Part shown: positions 1 through 10,199 of the stretch, piece after piece
Layout of the letters: each line of letters opens with the position of its first letter
How positions within the stretch are numbered: position 1 is the first letter of the stretch
Sequence record: NC_049392.1
From: Escherichia phage ESSI2_ev239
Reading direction: 5' to 3' (one strand)
DNA: 29,203 bases
The notes under the pieces: generated by a model
What the model saw: the letters and a program-made list of their open reading frames with translations, nothing else
Database searches by the model: none
Told to the model about the DNA's origin: nothing
Made by a program: the position numbers and the translations under genes

Positions 1-123
1 ATCATTGCCAGCGTACCGCTGGCCTTATTGAGCAGACCGATCCAGTTAAAACTGAAATCACCCACATCTGCGCCCAGCACTACGGAATAAACCACCCCGT
101 TTTCATTCACCACACCGGTGCGG
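1..123. repeat. Direct repeat, copy A: identical to 5096-5218 (internal tail-fibre coding segment)
   Basis: Base-by-base comparison shows identity over 123 bp, then complete divergence at 124 versus 5219. The repeat runs into the window edge and may extend further left. Confidence 0.9.
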
Positions 124-152
124 TGTAGCGCCGTTTTCGTCACTTCCGCCAT
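1..152 (-). CDS. Tail-fibre paralogue, N-terminal fragment (ORF runs off the left edge); possible second fibre gene or recombination remnant
   Basis: Minus-strand ATG at 150-152 opens a frame reading MAEVTKTALH followed by [40 protein letters not shown], identical to residues ~63-102 of the 524-aa fibre. An in-frame stop lies upstream at about 204-206; no clear Shine-Dalgarno. Confidence 0.35.
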   Translation of the reverse strand, partial: MAEVTKTALHRTGVVNENGVVYSVVLGADVGDFSFNWIGLLNKASGTLAM

Positions 153-306
153 TATTTCGTCGCGGCAGGCTGTATCAGCGCCTTGCTGCGCTACTGAAGT
201 TAATCAGGTTGGGATGAACGGGTGCAGATAATTACGGCGCTCAGAATGCGTCTGGTGAGGTCTGGTGGATACGATAAAGCCCGCATAATGCGGGCTGGTT
301 GAGTAA

Positions 307-2010
307 TCAGGCAATAATGTTCTGGTACTTGCTCCGGGTTTCTCCGGCTTTCGTGGCGGTCTGCGTGAATGATGCCGCATTGGTCGGTGTGCCGACGCTG
401 GGGTGTGAGTGACTGGCGCACTGCCTTGCCAGTTCTGCCAGTAAATCAATGGTATCCAGCATCATGGTCAGAGCGTTGATACTCTCACTGCCAATATGGA
501 CAGTTGCCCCCATGACCTGCTGACCGCCAGCGGCCACTGATTTACGCAGAGCGGCAATCTTCTCTGTCAGGCTTTCGCCAACCTCCACAGCTACAGCACC
601 GCCCACTTTAATGGACTGCTGTCCTGCTATGTCCGTTTCTTCGTTTCCTTCAATACTGGCCAGTCTGTTACCTTTCACCGCCTGGCTATAATCACCGGCG
701 CTTACCTGCTGGATAGCTCCGGCCAGCAGTGTGGCGGTTCCCAGTACCGTAGTTTTATCCGTGGCTTTCACCGTGGTTTCACGGCTGACCAGTTCGCGCT
801 GTTCCGTATCAGCTTTCACTGTTCGCGCCATTGATGTTTCGCTGATGGTCTGATCGGTCTGTCTTACCCAGTCCCCTGCCTGAGTCACCCGCTGGGAAAC
901 TTCTTCCCGCTGCTGCTGCAATTGCTCTCCGGGTTTAACGTTCGGCAGGCTGGTACCATCCGGCAGCGTCTGCCTGATAAAGGGTTTATCCGGTCTGCCC
1001 CCCGTGAATGCAACCTCAACCAGCGTCCCTTCTGGCGGAAACTGAAACATACCCGAATCATTCCCGGCCATCGGTACCGGCAACGGCACCGCTGAATAAA
1101 CAGGCGTCTGATTGTCCGGGTTTCCGTCTGCGTCAAGCAGCTGCACATCCACGGCGTAACGTGGCCGGAAGGGATCGGCAAAGTTACCGCTTTTTACCGG
1201 CTCTGAATGCGCCACGACTCTGGCCATCTTTGGCAAATGAAGCCCGGATGCCAGTTCCGGGTAATGGCTTTCAATCTGCCGTTGCGCCGGTGTTTTCTGC
1301 AAAGGTTTACCCGTTGCGCGGTTTCTCGGCGTCCATGTGATCGCCATCGTGTCATTCGTCAGGTGAACTTTAGTCACGCGTTCACCGTTCATCTCCACCC
1401 CTGGCCGCATAGTCTGGATCACTGGTAATGTCACAGAGTTACCTCCAGCAGCCCCCTGGCTGAACTCTGACGGGATTTCTACGGGACGACCGGCAAACAA
1501 TGATTTTTCTGCGCCGCCGACGTAAAGCGAACCATCAGGCAACTGGTACCAGATGTAATCCTGGATGCCGAACGCCCTGCCCAGATTGTTCAGCAACTGA
1601 TAGCCGGTACCGTTATGGGTGAAATGTGGGATAGGGGTATCGCTGTACTGTGCATCAGGCACACTGACCGTGATCCCGCTGTTTTCTTCCAGCCAGCTGG
1701 CTACCTCGCGTAAAGTTGGATGTTGAAACGAACATGGCCACATCCTTTCAAACACACCTACCAGCTCACGAATGAACAGACGCTGAAAACCGTTTTCAGC
1801 GGGCTGCGATCGCTCCACATACCCCGTAAACCAGCGCAAAAGCAGATCGGTATACCCCACATCCAGCCGCACCAGTTTTCCGGTGTAATCGGTTGTTGTC
1901 TCTGCGGTGATGAAGCCCCGGCCGCAGCTGTTCAGCTCCAGTACCAGGCTGGCATCCACCAGGTGAACTTCATCCGTTGAAAGGTAAAGGCGTTTTACTG
2001 GTTTCATCAT
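307..2010 (-). CDS. Putative baseplate hub / central spike fusion (gp27/gpD-like N-region plus gp5/gpV/VgrG-like OB-fold)
   Basis: 567 aa. Mid-region motif PEGTLVEVAFTGGRPDKPFIRQTLPDG resembles the conserved OB-fold signature of gpV/gp5/VgrG spikes. Start overlaps the upstream gene stop (ATGA coupling). Family assignment by eye only. Confidence 0.45.
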   Translation of the reverse strand: MMKPVKRLYLSTDEVHLVDASLVLELNSCGRGFITAETTTDYTGKLVRLDVGYTDLLLRWFTGYVERSQPAENGFQRLFIRELVGVFERMWPCSFQHPTLREVASWLEENSGITVSVPDAQYSDTPIPHFTHNGTGYQLLNNLGRAFGIQDYIWYQLPDGSLYVGGAEKSLFAGRPVEIPSEFSQGAAGGNSVTLPVIQTMRPGVEMNGERVTKVHLTNDTMAITWTPRNRATGKPLQKTPAQRQIESHYPELASGLHLPKMARVVAHSEPVKSGNFADPFRPRYAVDVQLLDADGNPDNQTPVYSAVPLPVPMAGNDSGMFQFPPEGTLVEVAFTGGRPDKPFIRQTLPDGTSLPNVKPGEQLQQQREEVSQRVTQAGDWVRQTDQTISETSMARTVKADTEQRELVSRETTVKATDKTTVLGTATLLAGAIQQVSAGDYSQAVKGNRLASIEGNEETDIAGQQSIKVGGAVAVEVGESLTEKIAALRKSVAAGGQQVMGATVHIGSESINALTMMLDTIDLLAELARQCASHSHPSVGTPTNAASFTQTATKAGETRSKYQNIIA

Positions 2011-2555
2011 TAACCCAAAGCATCATTGACGGGCTTCAGCACTTTGCGTTCAAACCACGTCAGTTTTTCTTCATCTTCTCCGGCAGACTGGCCACCGGAC
2101 TGTCCCGCACTACCGGCAGTCTGTTTTTTTGCGGTCGTCTTACCTGTTGCCCTGGCCTCTCGCTTTTCCTGCACGCTGATATGTTCCGCCAGTGTGAATG
2201 TCACCAGCCAGGCCATTTTCCCGTCCTGCTGGGGTGCATCCAGCATTCCGCTGAACGTTGCTTCACGAAAGTTAACAGCACGGGCAACTTCATGCGCCAC
2301 GCGGTACTTCTGACGATTACCACTGGTATCGGTAGCACTGGCCAGCTCAAAAATACGCTTCAGTATTTCAGGCTGTTTAAAAGGTATTTCACCGCTGATC
2401 CGCAGTTCCTTTCCCTTTGCTCCCTGCTCTGATTTTGTTGTGGCACTGGTCTGGCCGGACTGATCTTTATCCTGAAATTGCTGTGAAACAGTCACCCGCA
2501 TGTTTTTCAGCTGGATGGCCTCGCCATTAAGCGCCAGTGTCGGGATCGAAGTCAT
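2010..2555 (-). CDS. Hypothetical phage protein (tail-associated by position)
   Basis: 181-aa ORF translationally coupled to the hub/spike gene; Gly/Ser/Ala-rich C-terminus; no motif I can name. An alternative start at internal Met 19 would be near 2501. Confidence 0.4.
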   Translation of the reverse strand: MTSIPTLALNGEAIQLKNMRVTVSQQFQDKDQSGQTSATTKSEQGAKGKELRISGEIPFKQPEILKRIFELASATDTSGNRQKYRVAHEVARAVNFREATFSGMLDAPQQDGKMAWLVTFTLAEHISVQEKREARATGKTTAKKQTAGSAGQSGGQSAGEDEEKLTWFERKVLKPVNDALG

Positions 2556-3252
2556 GAATCATTCCCTTTATTCCATCAAGATTATCGCCAACCAGCATCA
2601 TGGCTGCGGTGTAAACGGCAGACTGCTGCGGAATGTCCTTCACCAGTTCCAGTAACGTGGTGCCGGTGTCTCCGCTGGCAGTAAAAACCCACGCTCTGGC
2701 ACTCTTCCCCTGTAAATCATTCAGGCCGCTGGCCACATCACTGATAAGCTGGTCACGCAGCTGCGTGAACTCGCCCAGCTGTTTTTTCAGCCCTTCGATA
2801 TCAAACCCGGCACCCGCCGCCTTTTGTGCCTGGCTGATTGCCGCAGCAGATAAAGCTGCCCTGCTGGTTGGTACAGACAGCGGAATGGACGCAGGTAACG
2901 CAGCGGCAGTTTTCGCAGGGATCTGCATCTTTTCAATAGCCAGCGCTGCGGCGGATTGCGCCAGCCGTTTGACCTGCGTGAATGCCGGGGCGGGGAAAAT
3001 CCCGACCAGGTTATTCAGGCTGGCCATAAAGTTTTCCTGCGTCTGTCCGGTGACCATCATAATCACCACATCCACATCCCCCCCTGTTCCGGCCAGGCGT
3101 TCAGCAAGATAGCGAACGGCATTAACCGGGCTGAGATATGCCCCGTTCGCTGTCTGCTGTCCCAGCCCATAAATCCACGGATGCGCAGGGACGATCGAAC
3201 AGTTCAGCGCAGCAACAGAATCCGTGAAGGCCAGACGTGCTTCACGCCACAT
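2527..3252 (-). CDS. Hypothetical phage protein (Ala-rich), downstream of tail fibre assembly gene
   Basis: Track ORF 2527-3288; start moved to Met 13 (MWREARLAF) to limit overlap with the upstream gene. No recognisable domain. Confidence 0.4.
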   Translation of the reverse strand: MWREARLAFTDSVAALNCSIVPAHPWIYGLGQQTANGAYLSPVNAVRYLAERLAGTGGDVDVVIMMVTGQTQENFMASLNNLVGIFPAPAFTQVKRLAQSAAALAIEKMQIPAKTAAALPASIPLSVPTSRAALSAAAISQAQKAAGAGFDIEGLKKQLGEFTQLRDQLISDVASGLNDLQGKSARAWVFTASGDTGTTLLELVKDIPQQSAVYTAAMMLVGDNLDGIKGMIHDFDPDTGA

Positions 3253-3829
3253 TTCCAGGCACCTCCGGCCACACAATTTCCGGCGCATCTTCCGGTTGAA
3301 TACGATTCAGTAAAACGCGGTATTTTTTCCATGCGGTAAGCAGCAGTGCTTCTTCTTCGGTTGCCATGTCTAAATCAACGGCATCCTGCAATGTGGCAAT
3401 GGCTTCATTGGCCTGTTTAAGCAGGCTTTTCTTTTCGGCGTCTGCCTCGCTGACCAATGCAATTCGCATGGCCTCCGCATCATCCACCCACGCCTTACCA
3501 TTCCATTTTTGCCAGGCATTAGCCGGGGCTGACGTGGTTGTCCCTTCCGGGTAAGCGCCTGGCTCGGTGATCACCAGTTCATTACCGTTTTCTGTATCAA
3601 ACACCACCTCACCACGATGATCCTCACGGGAAATCCATCTTTGCTTCTCTGAATCAAAAATTGCCACAAACCCCGCTTTGATTACCGGTGGTTTTATTGT
3701 GGTGCAGTTGGCTGGCAGTCCGGTATGCGCAGGAATAAAGGCGTCACCGGAACCAATAAATTCATTCGTATCGGAACGCAGGTTATAAACAGTAACTGTT
3801 TGATCGATTTCACTCATTTTAAAAGTCAT
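3242..3829 (-). CDS. tfa: Tail fibre assembly chaperone (Tfa; P2 gpG / Mu U / lambda Tfa family)
   Basis: 195 aa directly after the tail fibre gene; C-terminal KKYRVLLNRIQPEDAPEIVWPEVP matches the conserved Tfa C-terminal signature. Confidence 0.8.
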   Translation of the reverse strand: MTFKMSEIDQTVTVYNLRSDTNEFIGSGDAFIPAHTGLPANCTTIKPPVIKAGFVAIFDSEKQRWISREDHRGEVVFDTENGNELVITEPGAYPEGTTTSAPANAWQKWNGKAWVDDAEAMRIALVSEADAEKKSLLKQANEAIATLQDAVDLDMATEEEALLLTAWKKYRVLLNRIQPEDAPEIVWPEVPGNVA

Positions 3830-5403
3830 TATGCGAGTCTCACTATGTAGTTAAATGCAATGTTCTTAACGGTCGTTTCTGCGTTGCCCGACGCGGCGAC
3901 GGTAATGGTGTGACTGTGTGCGCCAATTGCTACGGTATGAGAGTGAGCGCCAATACCTACGGTGTGATTGTGTGCGCCAATGGCTACAGTGTGCGCGTGG
4001 TTTCCCGCCGAACTGGTGGCGGCTCGCCCCTGATCGCTACGTGGTACCCCCCAGTCACTACCACCTGATTGCACGTTCCCGCCATAACCAATGGTGTGCG
4101 TATGCGCTCCCGTGGTATTTGTCGTTTTCGTGCCATAGTCAAACGTGCTCGCCGTTTTAGTACCGTAATCAAAGGATGATGTTGGTTTTGTCCCCAGATC
4201 GGTACTGGATGCACTGGCTGTATGGTCATGAGATTTATTGCCATCATCTTCATAGGAGAGAACTGCGCGACCGTCTGGCTTTCCTTTGATTGTCTGGCGG
4301 CGCATGTCAGTAATAACACCCGATGGATACGCAGCAGCCAGCAATGGATATGCCGCCGTATTAAAAGACTGCCCCTGCATAATTGCCCATCCAGTAGGTG
4401 GGATATCCGTTGGCCATGGAAGCGGCACACCAACCGGCAGAACGTCACTGCGACTTAAAACGGCCAGTTCACCCAGATCCAGACTTTTTCTTGCTTTTAC
4501 CTTATCGTTAACATCAGCAAGGTTTGCATCCTTACGCAAAAAATCGCTGCTGGCCTGCTGTTCTCCCAGGCTACCTTTTGGCCGTAAATCCGTGATGTTG
4601 CCATCCACATCAATGCTGGCCACAGCAAACACATAATGCTGAACCCCGTTCTGAACATAATCAGCAAGATTTGCTGCCACCGTGATTTTGCTCTGCACAT
4701 TCCAGACACTGGTCAGCATCCCTGTCCAGCACACATCCAGCCAGACTTTTACCGGCTTTGCCGTCACCGTAATATTCTGATTCGCAGCCAGTGACGCACG
4801 AAGTCCAGCCACATACCCCGTGCCTTTCGTGACAAAAAACTGATTTCCGGTTTTGGCTACCAGATACCCGTTACCAAAAAACGCCGCCGCGCCATAAATA
4901 TCCATATTTTCCAGGCGCTGGCGCTCATCCATTCCGGCCATACGCGCAGTAAAATCAATCTGCCAGGTTTCAGCGGGTGTATTAATCCCGGTTTCCGTCT
5001 GTGCGCCGTTGTACTCCATCAGAAACGAGCGGGTCAGCACGTTCCCCTGTTGCCCTTCTTTTGTTTTCAGTTTCTGCTGTGATGGTGCATGGACAATCAT
5101 TGCCAGCGTACCGCTGGCCTTATTGAGCAGACCGATCCAGTTAAAACTGAAATCACCCACATCTGCGCCCAGCACTACGGAATAAACCACCCCGTTTTCA
5201 TTCACCACACCGGTGCGGGTAACAGATTGCCGGTGAACAATCTGTGCTGTCGGGGGCAACGCTTCATTGCGGTCAACAGGTGTATCCGGGTTTAAATCCG
5301 GCACACTGGCAAAAACAAATTCGTCCAGTAGTACCGGTTCACCCGTTGCGCCCTGCTGTGCTTTCCAGTTTTCAAACGCCAGTGTGATGGCTGTCTGTGA
5401 CAT
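3829..5403 (-). CDS. Tail fibre protein with His-x-His repeat tip
   Basis: 524 aa; conserved N-terminal attachment region; C-terminal repeats FDYGTKT and GAHxHTV(A/G)IGAH resemble HxH metal-binding tips of T4 gp37-type fibres. Followed immediately by Tfa. Confidence 0.85.
5096..5218. repeat. Direct repeat, copy B (identical to 1-123)
   Basis: See copy A; lies within codons ~62-102 of the tail fibre gene. Confidence 0.9.
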
Positions 5404-5413
5404 AAAAACCTCC

Positions 5414-6007
5414 TTACAAACTCGCGCTGAATGTTGCGCTGCGGGCTTCCGTCCCTGCTAACGTCGCCGGGTAAACCACATATTCCCCCTGATCCCACCC
5501 GGCCCTGATAACCAGGCTTTCAGACGTGATCACCTCAAACTGATAACGGCGGCATGTTCGCCCGTACTGGCGGATTATCTGGATCAGCAGCTGCGTGTTG
5601 TCCGCAATCTGGCTGTCTGTCACCCGAACAAGAATCACATCCCAGTCGATATCCGGTTGCCGTTCTAACAGCTCCACATAACCAATTCCCAGCCGTTCAA
5701 AGATATTGATAAACCCCTCTACTGAACCGGCATCCCGCGCATTCACGAAGGCAAAAGCCACGCGTTTGCGGAACAGGGTCAACGGTTCACCATCAAAGCG
5801 GGTGATATCCCGGTCATAAGCCAGCAGATTCAGTAATGCCGGTGTACACGTCAGCGGATCAAACTGGTTCATTGGCCAGGTAACCCAGCCGTAAACCTCA
5901 GCCCAGAACCGCCGCGCCGCTTTCAGCAATTTCCCCGGTTCGCCTTTATTCATCCAGGAAGGCAAGACCATCCCGGCCAGCTTTTTCATGAACTCATTCA
6001 TTCTCAA
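5414..6007 (-). CDS. Baseplate/tail protein, gpI-like by position
   Basis: 197 aa between the J-like gene and the tail fibre gene, start overlapping the J-like stop. Assignment is by synteny with J-I-H order in P2-like and Mu-like baseplates. Confidence 0.45.
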
Positions 6008-7178
6008 TATTCACCGTCAGTGATTTCAGACGCGGCACGCTCAGTTCACTGGTAATGTCTCCCAGCGAAAATGTCAGTGATTCCGTCTGTGCAAAGGTTT
6101 TATGAATTTCCCGCCCCAGTTGCGAAAAGGAAAACCGCGAATATGGCCACGTCTTTCTGACGTCATAATCAGCATTTTCACGAAAGGCACAGCGGATCAT
6201 GTTTTCAATGCCGCCCTTCAGCGTTTTCACTTCTTCATCGCTGAAGTTGTTCAGGTTTCTGACATAAACCGTGACGACCAGATCGTGAAGCGTTTCCGGC
6301 ATGGGATAGCACTGCATATCATCACCGTGGCCGTGATGCCCCTGCGTGTTGATATAGTCATTGACGGCATCCACGAACGGCGAAGAAGCCACCCCGCTGT
6401 CCAGCAACAGATACGCGTTGGCGGTACCGGGTCCCCTCGGCGCTTCATGTTCAAAGAAAATCCGGTCAATACTCAGCCCTGCAACGCCGGCAATCATCGA
6501 CCGGTAAACGGCGTCAGTGTGGTAATTCCCCACCAGATTGAACTGATTGCGGCAGCGTTCGCGCAGCTCGTCATCACTTTCTTCATCCGCGCCCGGTACG
6601 GTCAGCCAGTTTTCTTCGCTGGCCACGTGGCTGATACCGTCAACGGCAACCGGCAGAATGCGGTAATATCCCGGCGCAAGGTTATATGCGCCCCCGGTGC
6701 CGGTGGCTTTTACCGGCAGTAATGCGCTGGTCGTACCGGAAGCGATCACTACATCCTCACTGGTGGCCAGCTCATACACGCGACCGTTAATGCGCTCTGT
6801 CTGGATAACCGTCCCGGCTTTCACCGTCACCACCGCTCTTGCATCTTCTTTGAAGAAGCGGATCACACCCTGTGCCGCGCTCGCCGGTTTTGCCGTGACG
6901 TTCACCGCCCACGCCAGCAGACGCAACATGCTCCCGCTGGCCGTGGCCACAAACATGTTGGCCAGCACAGTGAACACCAGAACGTCTTTCAGCCACATTA
7001 CTGGTGCGGTCACAATGGCGGTGATTAACCGCCAGAACGGTGACATGCGGGACGTATTGGTGATGATGCCCTCCTCATCCGCGATCGCATTGAAGCGATC
7101 GCGAACCTCAGATTCCGTCACCGGCATCCCGCTGGCTTTCACCACTTCTTCAAAATCAACCTGGGGCTTTTCCGTCAT
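5994..7178 (-). CDS. Baseplate J-like protein (gpJ/gp47 family)
   Basis: Track ORF 5994-7232 begins at GTG; preferred start is the ATG of MTEKPQV near 7178, which overlaps the upstream stop (ATGA). Size and position fit baseplate J. Confidence 0.65.
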   Translation of the reverse strand: MTEKPQVDFEEVVKASGMPVTESEVRDRFNAIADEEGIITNTSRMSPFWRLITAIVTAPVMWLKDVLVFTVLANMFVATASGSMLRLLAWAVNVTAKPASAAQGVIRFFKEDARAVVTVKAGTVIQTERINGRVYELATSEDVVIASGTTSALLPVKATGTGGAYNLAPGYYRILPVAVDGISHVASEENWLTVPGADEESDDELRERCRNQFNLVGNYHTDAVYRSMIAGVAGLSIDRIFFEHEAPRGPGTANAYLLLDSGVASSPFVDAVNDYINTQGHHGHGDDMQCYPMPETLHDLVVTVYVRNLNNFSDEEVKTLKGGIENMIRCAFRENADYDVRKTWPYSRFSFSQLGREIHKTFAQTESLTFSLGDITSELSVPRLKSLTVNIENE

Positions 7179-7504
7179 AAATCCACCTGATATGAAAGCG
7201 TGCCAAAATCGTATGTGCTCGCGGTCACCCACAGCCGTTTCTGGCTTTCTTCACTGATTTCCACCGTTCCCGGCACAATGCGCTCATCGTTTTCAACCAG
7301 TAATTCCAGTTGTGTAAAAATATCTGCCCTCAGTGTCGGACTGCGTTCCGCAATTAATTGCGTGGCTAATCCGCTCTCAATAATGGCGTGAATAATGTCC
7401 TGCCCGATACTTTTTCGGTTATTGCATAATTCAGGCTCATTACCGGCATTTAATGAAAAGTCACCATTCTCAATAAGCAGGTCAATATAAAGGGCTTCAC
7501 TCAT
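7175..7504 (-). CDS. Putative baseplate wedge protein (gpW/gp25-like)
   Basis: 109 aa; ATG overlaps the tape-measure stop (ATGA) and its stop overlaps the J-like start. Size and position typical of gpW/gp25; sequence similarity is weak by eye. Confidence 0.45.
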   Translation of the reverse strand: MSEALYIDLLIENGDFSLNAGNEPELCNNRKSIGQDIIHAIIESGLATQLIAERSPTLRADIFTQLELLVENDERIVPGTVEISEESQKRLWVTASTYDFGTLSYQVDL

Positions 7505-9468
7505 ACACCCAGCTCCTGATATTCCATTAACTTGCCGGGCGACATCATTTCAGTTGGATAAATATTCACCGTATCAATTCTGCGGCTGTTATCCGTTACT
7601 GATTTAGAATTACTGCTAATTGTTTTACTGATACCGCCTTTATCAACGCCTTTTAATTCACCGCCAGTAGAAAGGGTATTCGTTGTCAGTGCTGGTTGAG
7701 ATTCGTTCGCCAGTGAAATATCGACGCCCGGAATTTTATTGAGTTTTCCGACAATCCAGTTCCACGATTTCAGGAACCCGCCTTTGATGGTCTGCCAGAC
7801 GTTATCAAACAGGGAGACAATCCCGCTGGCCATGCCGCTTAGCGCCTGTGACGGTGAAAAGCCGGTCAGCAGCGCAATAAAGCTGTTCCAGCCGTCCGTG
7901 ATCCATTGCCACGCCGCGGAAAACACGCCGGCAAGCCATTCCACCACACCAGCCACGGCGGTAAACGCTGCCGTATTCATCACCGCCGCTTTCACATCAT
8001 CCCAGTGTTTAATCAGCAGATAACACCCGGCAGCCAGCAGAGCAATCGCCCCGATAACCAGCAGAACCGGCCAGCTCATCAGGTTGATGCCAATACCGGC
8101 CATAATCGCCGCCATACGCACGGCCAGCAGCGTACCCCGCAGGAATTTCAGCGTCAGGTTCCACGCCACAACAGCCTTTGAGGCAATCCAGACAGTGGCC
8201 GCGTAAATCTTCGTGACCAGCGTCAGGGCGCTCCAGAGTCCCTTCAGTCCCACCAGGATAAATTTTGAGACGCCCATGACAATATTTGTCACCGCGCCCG
8301 CTGCCGCCACGCCAAACAGCGCAAGTTGCACGTAACCAATCACCCGCGCAATGTTGGGAAACATCTGCATCCAGCGTCCGAACGTCTGCCCCATATCGGC
8401 CAGGCGGTTCAGTACCGGGTACAGAACCGGGATCAACGTCAGTCCGATCACCGTCTGAATGGCTTTAAGGATTTGTACAAAGCGATCCCACGGCTTGACC
8501 AGCTTCCCGGCCATCTCCTGTGTACGCTTCAGCCCGTCAGAGCCGCCCAGTTCGGTGATATTACGCTGCAGTAACGCCACATTGCCGTACAGATGTTTTA
8601 TCACCGCTGAACTGTCACCAAATGCCGCATCCAGCTCCGCCTGGGCTTTCAGGTTCCCTTCCAGGCTTTTGCCGTATTTGCCCTGCAGCTTGATCAGCAT
8701 TTCAGGCATGGACAGCATTTTGCCGGTGGAGTCCGTGAAGGACAGCCCCAGCTTTTTAGCGCCCTCCATCGCGCCGGTCATGAAGCCTTCGTAAGCGCTG
8801 CTGGCTTCTGTTCCCAGCGTACGGTTGAGCTGCCCCAGCACCGCCAGCTGTTCATCCAGCCCGACGCCGTAGTTAGTCCCGACACCTCGCGCCCCTTCCA
8901 TCAGGTCTTTGATGGTACCCATTTCGGTACCGAAGACCTTGCGCATATACACCATTTTTCCCGCCAGTTGCTCGGCGAACTGGACTTTACCCAGCCGCGC
9001 CGCATCGGCGGAAAAGTTACCGTACATCTGCCCCATAAACTCTGCTGTGTCGGCGGATGTGGATTTCAGGGCAAATGCCAGCGTATTAGCGACCTTCGTC
9101 ACTTTCGGCAGCTCGCTGGCGGTAAGGCCGGCAATGGAAGCGTTAATGTTCTCTGTGGATTTGACGAACTCCACTGCGCTGGCACCGTAGGTCATGCTGA
9201 ACCGGAGCGCATCACGCTGTACGGTCTTTAATGCCTGATTATCAATCCCTTTTGCGGCGGCATCATTCAGCGCGTCGTACATTTCGATAGCCGGCGATAA
9301 CGCGCCTTTTATGGCCATCCCCGTACCGGCCAGCCCCAGCACGCCGCCGCCAATCTGCGAAAAGGCCGCTTTTGATTTTTCCGCAAAGCCGGTGACGCTG
9401 CCCTGCGCCTGTTTTAACGGGCGCGTCAGCTTATCAATCAGGCTTAATGTAAAATCTAACTGTTTCAT
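7501..9468 (-). CDS. Tail tape measure protein
   Basis: 655 aa, Ala/Gly-rich helical N-half and hydrophobic C-half (LAVRMAAIMAGIGINLMSWPVLLVIGAIALLAAG); directly downstream of the frameshifted chaperone. Confidence 0.8.
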   Translation of the reverse strand: MKQLDFTLSLIDKLTRPLKQAQGSVTGFAEKSKAAFSQIGGGVLGLAGTGMAIKGALSPAIEMYDALNDAAAKGIDNQALKTVQRDALRFSMTYGASAVEFVKSTENINASIAGLTASELPKVTKVANTLAFALKSTSADTAEFMGQMYGNFSADAARLGKVQFAEQLAGKMVYMRKVFGTEMGTIKDLMEGARGVGTNYGVGLDEQLAVLGQLNRTLGTEASSAYEGFMTGAMEGAKKLGLSFTDSTGKMLSMPEMLIKLQGKYGKSLEGNLKAQAELDAAFGDSSAVIKHLYGNVALLQRNITELGGSDGLKRTQEMAGKLVKPWDRFVQILKAIQTVIGLTLIPVLYPVLNRLADMGQTFGRWMQMFPNIARVIGYVQLALFGVAAAGAVTNIVMGVSKFILVGLKGLWSALTLVTKIYAATVWIASKAVVAWNLTLKFLRGTLLAVRMAAIMAGIGINLMSWPVLLVIGAIALLAAGCYLLIKHWDDVKAAVMNTAAFTAVAGVVEWLAGVFSAAWQWITDGWNSFIALLTGFSPSQALSGMASGIVSLFDNVWQTIKGGFLKSWNWIVGKLNKIPGVDISLANESQPALTTNTLSTGGELKGVDKGGISKTISSNSKSVTDNSRRIDTVNIYPTEMMSPGKLMEYQELGV

Positions 9469-9913
9469 TCCGTGCCTTTAAATGCGGTGCTGATTCCGTT
9501 AGCAACCGCTATTCGCATATTTTCCCAGTGGCGATTATCCAGCCAGATGGCAGCGGAAATATCATCCACGGAATCCTGACCGTGTGGTAAATAATGGCGA
9601 CGCAAAATTAAATACTGTTCGAGTCCGTTCTGTTCAATTGCCCGGACTCGTTTTGTCAGTTTTTTACTTCAATTTCCAGTTCTGGCGCATAAAGCTCATT
9701 CACTTTCCCGGCAAGCTGGAGCGCTGCACCCGGACGTTTCAGAATGTCTTCCAGCGCTTCTTTACTTTCAGCAGACACAATGCGTACAAGATAATTGTGT
9801 GCAGGTGCCACTTTATTATCCATCGCCATTTCGTTGATGAACTTATTATAAGCGGTCTGATTCGGTTCAAAGATAATTTCTTTTTTGCATACAACCAGAT
9901 TAATTTTTTCCAT
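9465..9913 (-). CDS. Tail assembly chaperone, -1 frameshift fusion product (G-T / E-E' type)
   Basis: The -1 frame is open from the slippery heptamer at 9659-9665 to a TGA at 9465-9467 that overlaps the tape-measure ATG. Predicted fusion is about 149 aa (...EIEVKKLTKRVRAIEQNGLEQYLILRRHYLPHGQDSVDDISAAIWLDNRHWENMRIAVANGISTAFKGTE). Confidence 0.5.
9656..9913 (-). CDS. Tail assembly chaperone (zero-frame product)
   Basis: 85-aa ORF immediately upstream of the tape measure gene, ending ...EIEVKN with a TGA stop. Confidence 0.6.
   Translation of the reverse strand: MEKINLVVCKKEIIFEPNQTAYNKFINEMAMDNKVAPAHNYLVRIVSAESKEALEDILKRPGAALQLAGKVNELYAPELEIEVKN
9659..9665 (-). promoter_or_regulatory. Programmed -1 ribosomal frameshift slippery site A_AAA_AAC
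   Basis: Minus-strand AAAAAAC (plus-strand gttttttt) covers the last two sense codons of the chaperone (AAA AAC), two codons before its stop. Confidence 0.5.
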
Positions 9914-10199
9914 AAATAACGTTCTCTCTTAAATTAATTTCATCAACAAGCGCGTTATGCCGTGCAGCACACTGCCCGTATAACTCCAGATAAAGTGTCA
10001 GTAATTCCGCCGCGTCTTTTCCCTGCTTTCCACTCAGGCGCGGCAGCTGCGTGGCGCATTTAGTTTTCAGGTTTTCCTGATAACGTACGTTCGGTACTGG
10101 TGACGGCGTCGTTGTACATGCGGACAAAGTCATCAGACAGACACTTATTGGTAAATACCGGCCTAACCACTTCCGTGCGGATTTCACGCGGTGGCGCAT
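9900..10199 (-). CDS. o-spanin (Rz1-like outer-membrane lipoprotein)
   Basis: N-terminus MRHRVKSARKWLGRYLPISVCLMTLSAC carries a signal peptide and an LSAC lipobox. Starts inside the i-spanin gene in another frame and extends beyond it. Confidence 0.55.
   Translation of the reverse strand: MRHRVKSARKWLGRYLPISVCLMTLSACTTTPSPVPNVRYQENLKTKCATQLPRLSGKQGKDAAELLTLYLELYGQCAARHNALVDEINLRENVIYGKN

Follow-up and report, generated by a model that had tools for sequence, protein, structure and literature searches.

The two genes located between the tail fibre assembly gene (Tfa) and the central spike gene of this prophage, referred to here as ORF-A and ORF-B, are, as judged from their sequences, clear homologues of orf33 and orf34 of Haemophilus phage HP1, respectively, and the spike gene that follows them (ORF-C) is likewise a clear homologue of HP1 orf35. 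Identities to the HP1 proteins are 29% for ORF-A, 40% for ORF-B and 41% for ORF-C. The window, by which we mean the whole 29,203-nucleotide stretch of DNA analyzed, is an ESSI-2-like prophage of E. coli from the family Peduoviridae. Escherichia phages ESSI2_ev129, ev015 and ev040 (Peduoviridae, Quadragintavirus) share 91–92% identity with it, and its tail genes are laid out as in HP1 and not as in P2. Specifically, the late region carries HP1-type matches to the Pfam families Phage_HP1_Orf24 (tube), DUF2586 (sheath), DUF2590, Baseplate_J and Tail_P2_I. A tblastn comparison of eleven P2 tail proteins, gpU, J and I included, with the window gave nothing significant, in keeping with the deep divergence of HP1 and P2 tail modules described previously (PMC10612066). 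The fixed HP1-type order is TMP-W-J-I-fibre-(Tfa)-orf33-orf34-orf35, and it was seen in phages and prophages of Haemophilus, Yersinia, Vibrio, Aeromonas, Pseudomonas, Oceanisphaera and Pseudoalteromonas, with HP1, Yersinia 324, K139, an Oceanisphaera prophage, phiO18P, phi3 and ACA1 all sharing the same gene order. The presence of ORF-A and ORF-B is consequently an ordinary and essentially already known feature of this phage type; there is no cargo hotspot, and annotators should not label this normal tail order as a P2 cargo slot.

All of the genes considered here are encoded on the minus strand. Tfa (3242 to 3829; Pfam Caudo_TAP, E = 8.5e-36) is the upstream neighbour of ORF-A (2527 to 3252, 241 aa), which is followed by ORF-B (2010 to 2555, 181 aa) and by ORF-C (307 to 2010, 567 aa), so that the two co-directional, overlapping reading frames originally described between Tfa and the spike gene are both in place. 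The start of ORF-A was assigned to the ATG at 3252, with a GGAGG 9 nt upstream (plus-strand CCTCC, 3262–3266). The longest mechanical reading of this frame starts at 3288 and gives 253 aa; 3252 is supported as the real start because the N-terminal 'MW' is conserved in 62 of 62 aligned homologues. The end of Tfa overlaps the start of ORF-A by 11 nt (3242–3252), ORF-A overlaps ORF-B by 29 nt (2527–2555), and a single base is common to the stop of ORF-B and the start of ORF-C (TAATG at 2010), bearing out the tight coupling to the hub/spike gene that had been predicted. The predicted native composition was also found, with GC contents of 0.562 for ORF-A and 0.520 for ORF-B set against 0.49–0.55 in the neighbouring tail genes and 0.514 in the window as a whole. 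Moreover, both frames are considered real genes because of their many homologues (254 representative clusters matching ORF-A at E ≤ 1e-3 among 1.84 billion proteins, and 320 scored candidates homologous to ORF-B at the same threshold) and their low dN/dS relative to phage ESSI2_ev129 (0.18 for ORF-A and 0.30 for ORF-B, with few substitutions behind both values).

In terms of transcription signals, promoter-like and terminator-like sites in positions 1–10000 did not exceed the number expected from shuffled sequence. The only strong hairpin lies 3′ of ORF-C on the minus strand (278–296; AGCCCGCA-UUA-UGCGGGCU, then UUAU; RNAfold dG = -14.2 kcal/mol) and begins 11 nt past the ORF-C stop. In K139 a terminator is annotated at the equivalent position, after orf39, and the hairpin is probably the terminator of the late tail operon. 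A simple terminator scan did not report it.

The original prediction had equated this slot with the Z/fun hotspot of P2, and this equation does not survive the comparison. The fun(Z) gene of P2 is transcribed separately from the opposite strand, with the terminator of the V operon on one side and the promoter of the F operon on the other, whereas ORF-A and ORF-B are internal to an operon, run in the same direction as both neighbours and overlap them, and are compositionally native; the sole likeness between the P2 hotspot morons and these genes is their place downstream of the fibre assembly gene. An interpretation in which one or both proteins are cargo, either a moron or a superinfection-exclusion function, in a variable slot of this type could draw on the fact that ORF-A is missing from some HP1-type lineages and is hence not strictly core, and that neither protein has an experimentally demonstrated function. 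It is nevertheless very improbable. In seven reference phages and prophages of different hosts the gene preceding orf34 matches an HMM of the orf33 family, ORF-A is retained in 79 and ORF-B in all 81 of the 81 related loci, a PADLOC search gave no matches, ORF-B has a tube fold, and the pair shows neither foreign GC content (0.52–0.56) nor internal signals above chance. The accompanying suggestion that these are native genes and not cargo thus holds.

Of the two proteins, ORF-B is the more readily placed. It matches PF25759 (HP1_ORF34, baseplate complex protein) with 185.1 bits against a gathering cut-off of 27 (E = 1.2e-54), the match spanning residues 6–181 and profile positions 2–176 of 180, and the same family is present in 120 of 120 listed homologues. 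The earlier view that neither protein could be assigned from sequence therefore fails for ORF-B; ORF-A has no Pfam domain. An orf34 homologue was found in every HP1-type locus examined, including those that lack orf33, and it sits directly upstream of the orf35-type hub/spike gene in the window, HP1, Yersinia 324, K139, the Oceanisphaera prophage, phiO18P, phi3, ACA1, yong1, SMHB1 and C5a. Sequence-based searches of the PDB with phmmer and with profiles returned chance matches only, and nothing was found in NCBIfam. The predicted structure of ORF-B comprises a tube-fold domain (residues ~1–125), a low-complexity linker (~130–165) and a conserved predicted C-terminal helix (167–180), the last of which is missing in the homologues of K139, C5a and ACA1. 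The modelled fold is the tail-tube beta-sandwich of the tube-initiator class and identifies ORF-B as a tail-tube paralogue, which upholds the proposal that it is a baseplate component.

Building on this fold, we infer that ORF-B is very probably a tube initiator, analogous to P2 gpU, that would join the tube to the hub. The class includes P2 gpU, the pyocin R2 'ripcord' PA0626, T4 gp48/54, Pam3 gp17, XM1 gp11 and Mu N, and in P2 cryo-EM six gpU copies are seen on three gpD, with the gpU C-terminal helix touching the wedge (bioRxiv 10.64898/2026.09.14.750843). ORF-B has no detectable sequence similarity to P2 gpU: the Pfam GpU family (Phage_P2_GpU, PF06995) did not match it at E ≤ 0.1, and hhalign of the ORF-B family profile, which is shallow (Neff 1.8), against gpU gave a probability of 0.2%. 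The orf34 homologue of ACA1 has been linked weakly to Pfam GpU by HHpred, a link that its authors call uncertain (PMC10612066), and published mass spectrometry of virions did not detect this homologue. Two further differences concern domain content and gene order: many eCIS initiators carry LysM, which ORF-B lacks, and in HP1-type phages the W-J-I-fibre block lies between orf34 and the tape-measure gene. The literature on the 'minimalist' XM1/MMNM phages was set aside as not relevant, their baseplates being of the Mu/pyocin type.

With respect to the spike, ORF-C aligns with HP1 orf35 at E = 1e-156, matches phrog_2258 ('baseplate protein'), and displays an OB-fold, a gp5-like beta-helix and an HxH apex; the similarity to the C-terminal beta-helix of T4 gp5 has E = 5e-7, and VgrG matches are in register and weak. 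Published HHpred analysis assigns the N-terminal ~290 aa of the orf35 type to a gpD-like hub domain, with gpD and gpV fused in HP1 (PMC10612066, Table S1). Our hhalign comparisons of the family profiles with P2 gpD and gpV, of low power given single-sequence targets and some shallow profiles, yielded no signal and lend no support to a gpD-like identity for the N-terminal part of ORF-C. On the other side of ORF-A, window-type Tfa is present in 21 of 81 related loci and the window-type fibre C-terminus in 20 of 81, and the two form a swappable cassette beside ORF-A.

ORF-A belongs to phrog_1677 (E = 9e-77) and matches HP1 orf33 with E = 5e-21. No shared Pfam domain was found across 117 family members scanned, sequence searches of the PDB (phmmer and profile searches) gave chance matches only, and NCBIfam returned nothing. 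The predicted fold, of moderate confidence (pLDDT 62), consists of a six-stranded alpha/beta domain of ~170 residues with a helical insert, and the model had no fold match among solved baseplate proteins or BFVD models. The possibility that ORF-A is a split-off gp27/gpD hub domain was also considered and rejected, neither homology nor fold similarity having been found. Direct evidence on the virion comes from ACA1, whose gp46, a distant homologue ~16% identical to HP1 orf33, was represented by 2 spectra when purified virions were analyzed in published mass spectrometry; normalized to mass, its spectral count was close to those of gpW, gpJ and gpV. Neither the complete genomes of C5a and yong1 nor 70 related IMG/VR loci contain a member of the family; because C5a- and yong1-type tails dispense with it, orf33 is an accessory and not a universal part. 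ORF-A evolves fastest in its block, at a mean pairwise distance of 0.18 compared with 0.09 for ORF-B. Its pairwise distances track those of the N-terminal part of ORF-C (rho 0.93), the C-terminal part of ORF-C (0.90) and ORF-B (0.88) more closely than those of I (0.83), J (0.81) and the fibre N-terminus (0.64); linkage and common descent confound these correlations. Taken together, ORF-A is probably a low-copy accessory tail or baseplate protein. The original description of it as a baseplate component is accordingly sound as far as a native tail gene is concerned, and goes too far as a confident baseplate call for a protein with no structural homologue, 2 spectra and whole HP1-type lineages that do without it.

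Our preferred explanation, which we hold to be an evenly balanced proposition when all of its parts are taken together, is that, in an HP1-type contractile tail, ORF-A (orf33) serves as an accessory protein and ORF-B (orf34) as the initiator ring. Both genes would be transcribed towards the far end of the late tail operon, and their translation would be coupled to that of orf35, the hub-spike gene. Six copies of ORF-B would form a tube-initiator ring on the trimeric hub-spike and template the first ring of tube protein, while the linker and C-terminal helix would reach the gpJ/gpI-like wedge, as do the gpU helix of P2 and the pyocin 'ripcord'. ORF-A would be a lineage-restricted, low-copy accessory of the hub/spike block, most likely a structural virion protein located on the hub-spike or inner baseplate and not an exclusion or cargo protein. 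A more specific version, in which ORF-A anchors or decorates the beta-helical hub-spike in one HP1-type branch, perhaps with a bridging role like that of LysM 'glue', is a tentative possibility that we would lean against; if correct, it would represent a new kind of inner-baseplate component.

Two other roles for ORF-A must be weighed against these. ORF-A may be an assembly factor, acting either as a hub-spike chaperone or scaffold or in Tfa-dependent fibre attachment, that is mostly discarded afterwards. The lineages lacking orf33 (yong1-like, 41 loci; C5a-like, 27; and 2 others) are those without Tfa in the references examined, and their hub and spike genes are split, with spike ORFs ~70–100 codons shorter; the low spectral count in ACA1, the rapid evolution of ORF-A and its lack of likeness to solved baseplate proteins are in keeping with such a role. 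Against this, some virion signal is present in ACA1, and ORF-A does not co-vary with Tfa type, being kept in nearly all of the related loci in which window-type Tfa is the minority form. The pattern of presence and absence may moreover reflect a single ancient clade split and so provide non-independent evidence. [quoted passage not shown] On balance, we regard the assembly-factor role as doubtful.

The remaining role, in which ORF-A substitutes functionally for the LysM 'glue' of P2 (gpX) and pyocin (PA0627), with six copies bridging the tube initiator or hub to the wedges, is unlikely. It arises by elimination: no LysM domain was found in the 37 window ORFs scanned, six gpX bridge wedge and hub in P2, the glue gene of pyocin R2 sits between the genes for the ripcord and the hub, and ORF-A adjoins the tube-initiator gene. 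ORF-A is nonetheless a 241-aa alpha/beta protein, 3.6 times larger than the 67-aa LysM protein gpX, with no LysM fold and no sequence relation to it (hhalign probability 0.2% for the orf33 family against the single gpX sequence, a comparison of low power). In addition, the HP1-type tail appears to need no such glue, because C5a and yong1 carry neither orf33 nor an evident LysM protein, and HP1-type tails thus function without a recognizable LysM glue.

Among known systems, the closest counterparts of the window genes are their direct homologues, which occur in the same order as orf33-orf34-orf35 of HP1, orf37-39 of K139, orf44-46 of phiO18P and gp46-49 of ACA1 and, like ORF-A, ORF-B and ORF-C, close the late tail operon as a series in which starts and stops overlap. 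Differences within this set include the separate hub and spike genes of ACA1 and the longer orf33 of K139 and phiO18P, which unlike ORF-A contains an additional N-terminal insertion of ~45–65 aa. No solved HP1-type baseplate structure was found in the PDB or in the literature searched, and the role of orf33, an extra conserved protein borne by one HP1-type branch, constitutes a small and well-defined question for phage biology. As for existing annotation, public records misname orf34 homologues, for example as 'adenine glycosylase', 'nucleoid DNA-binding protein' or 'tail-collar fiber protein'.

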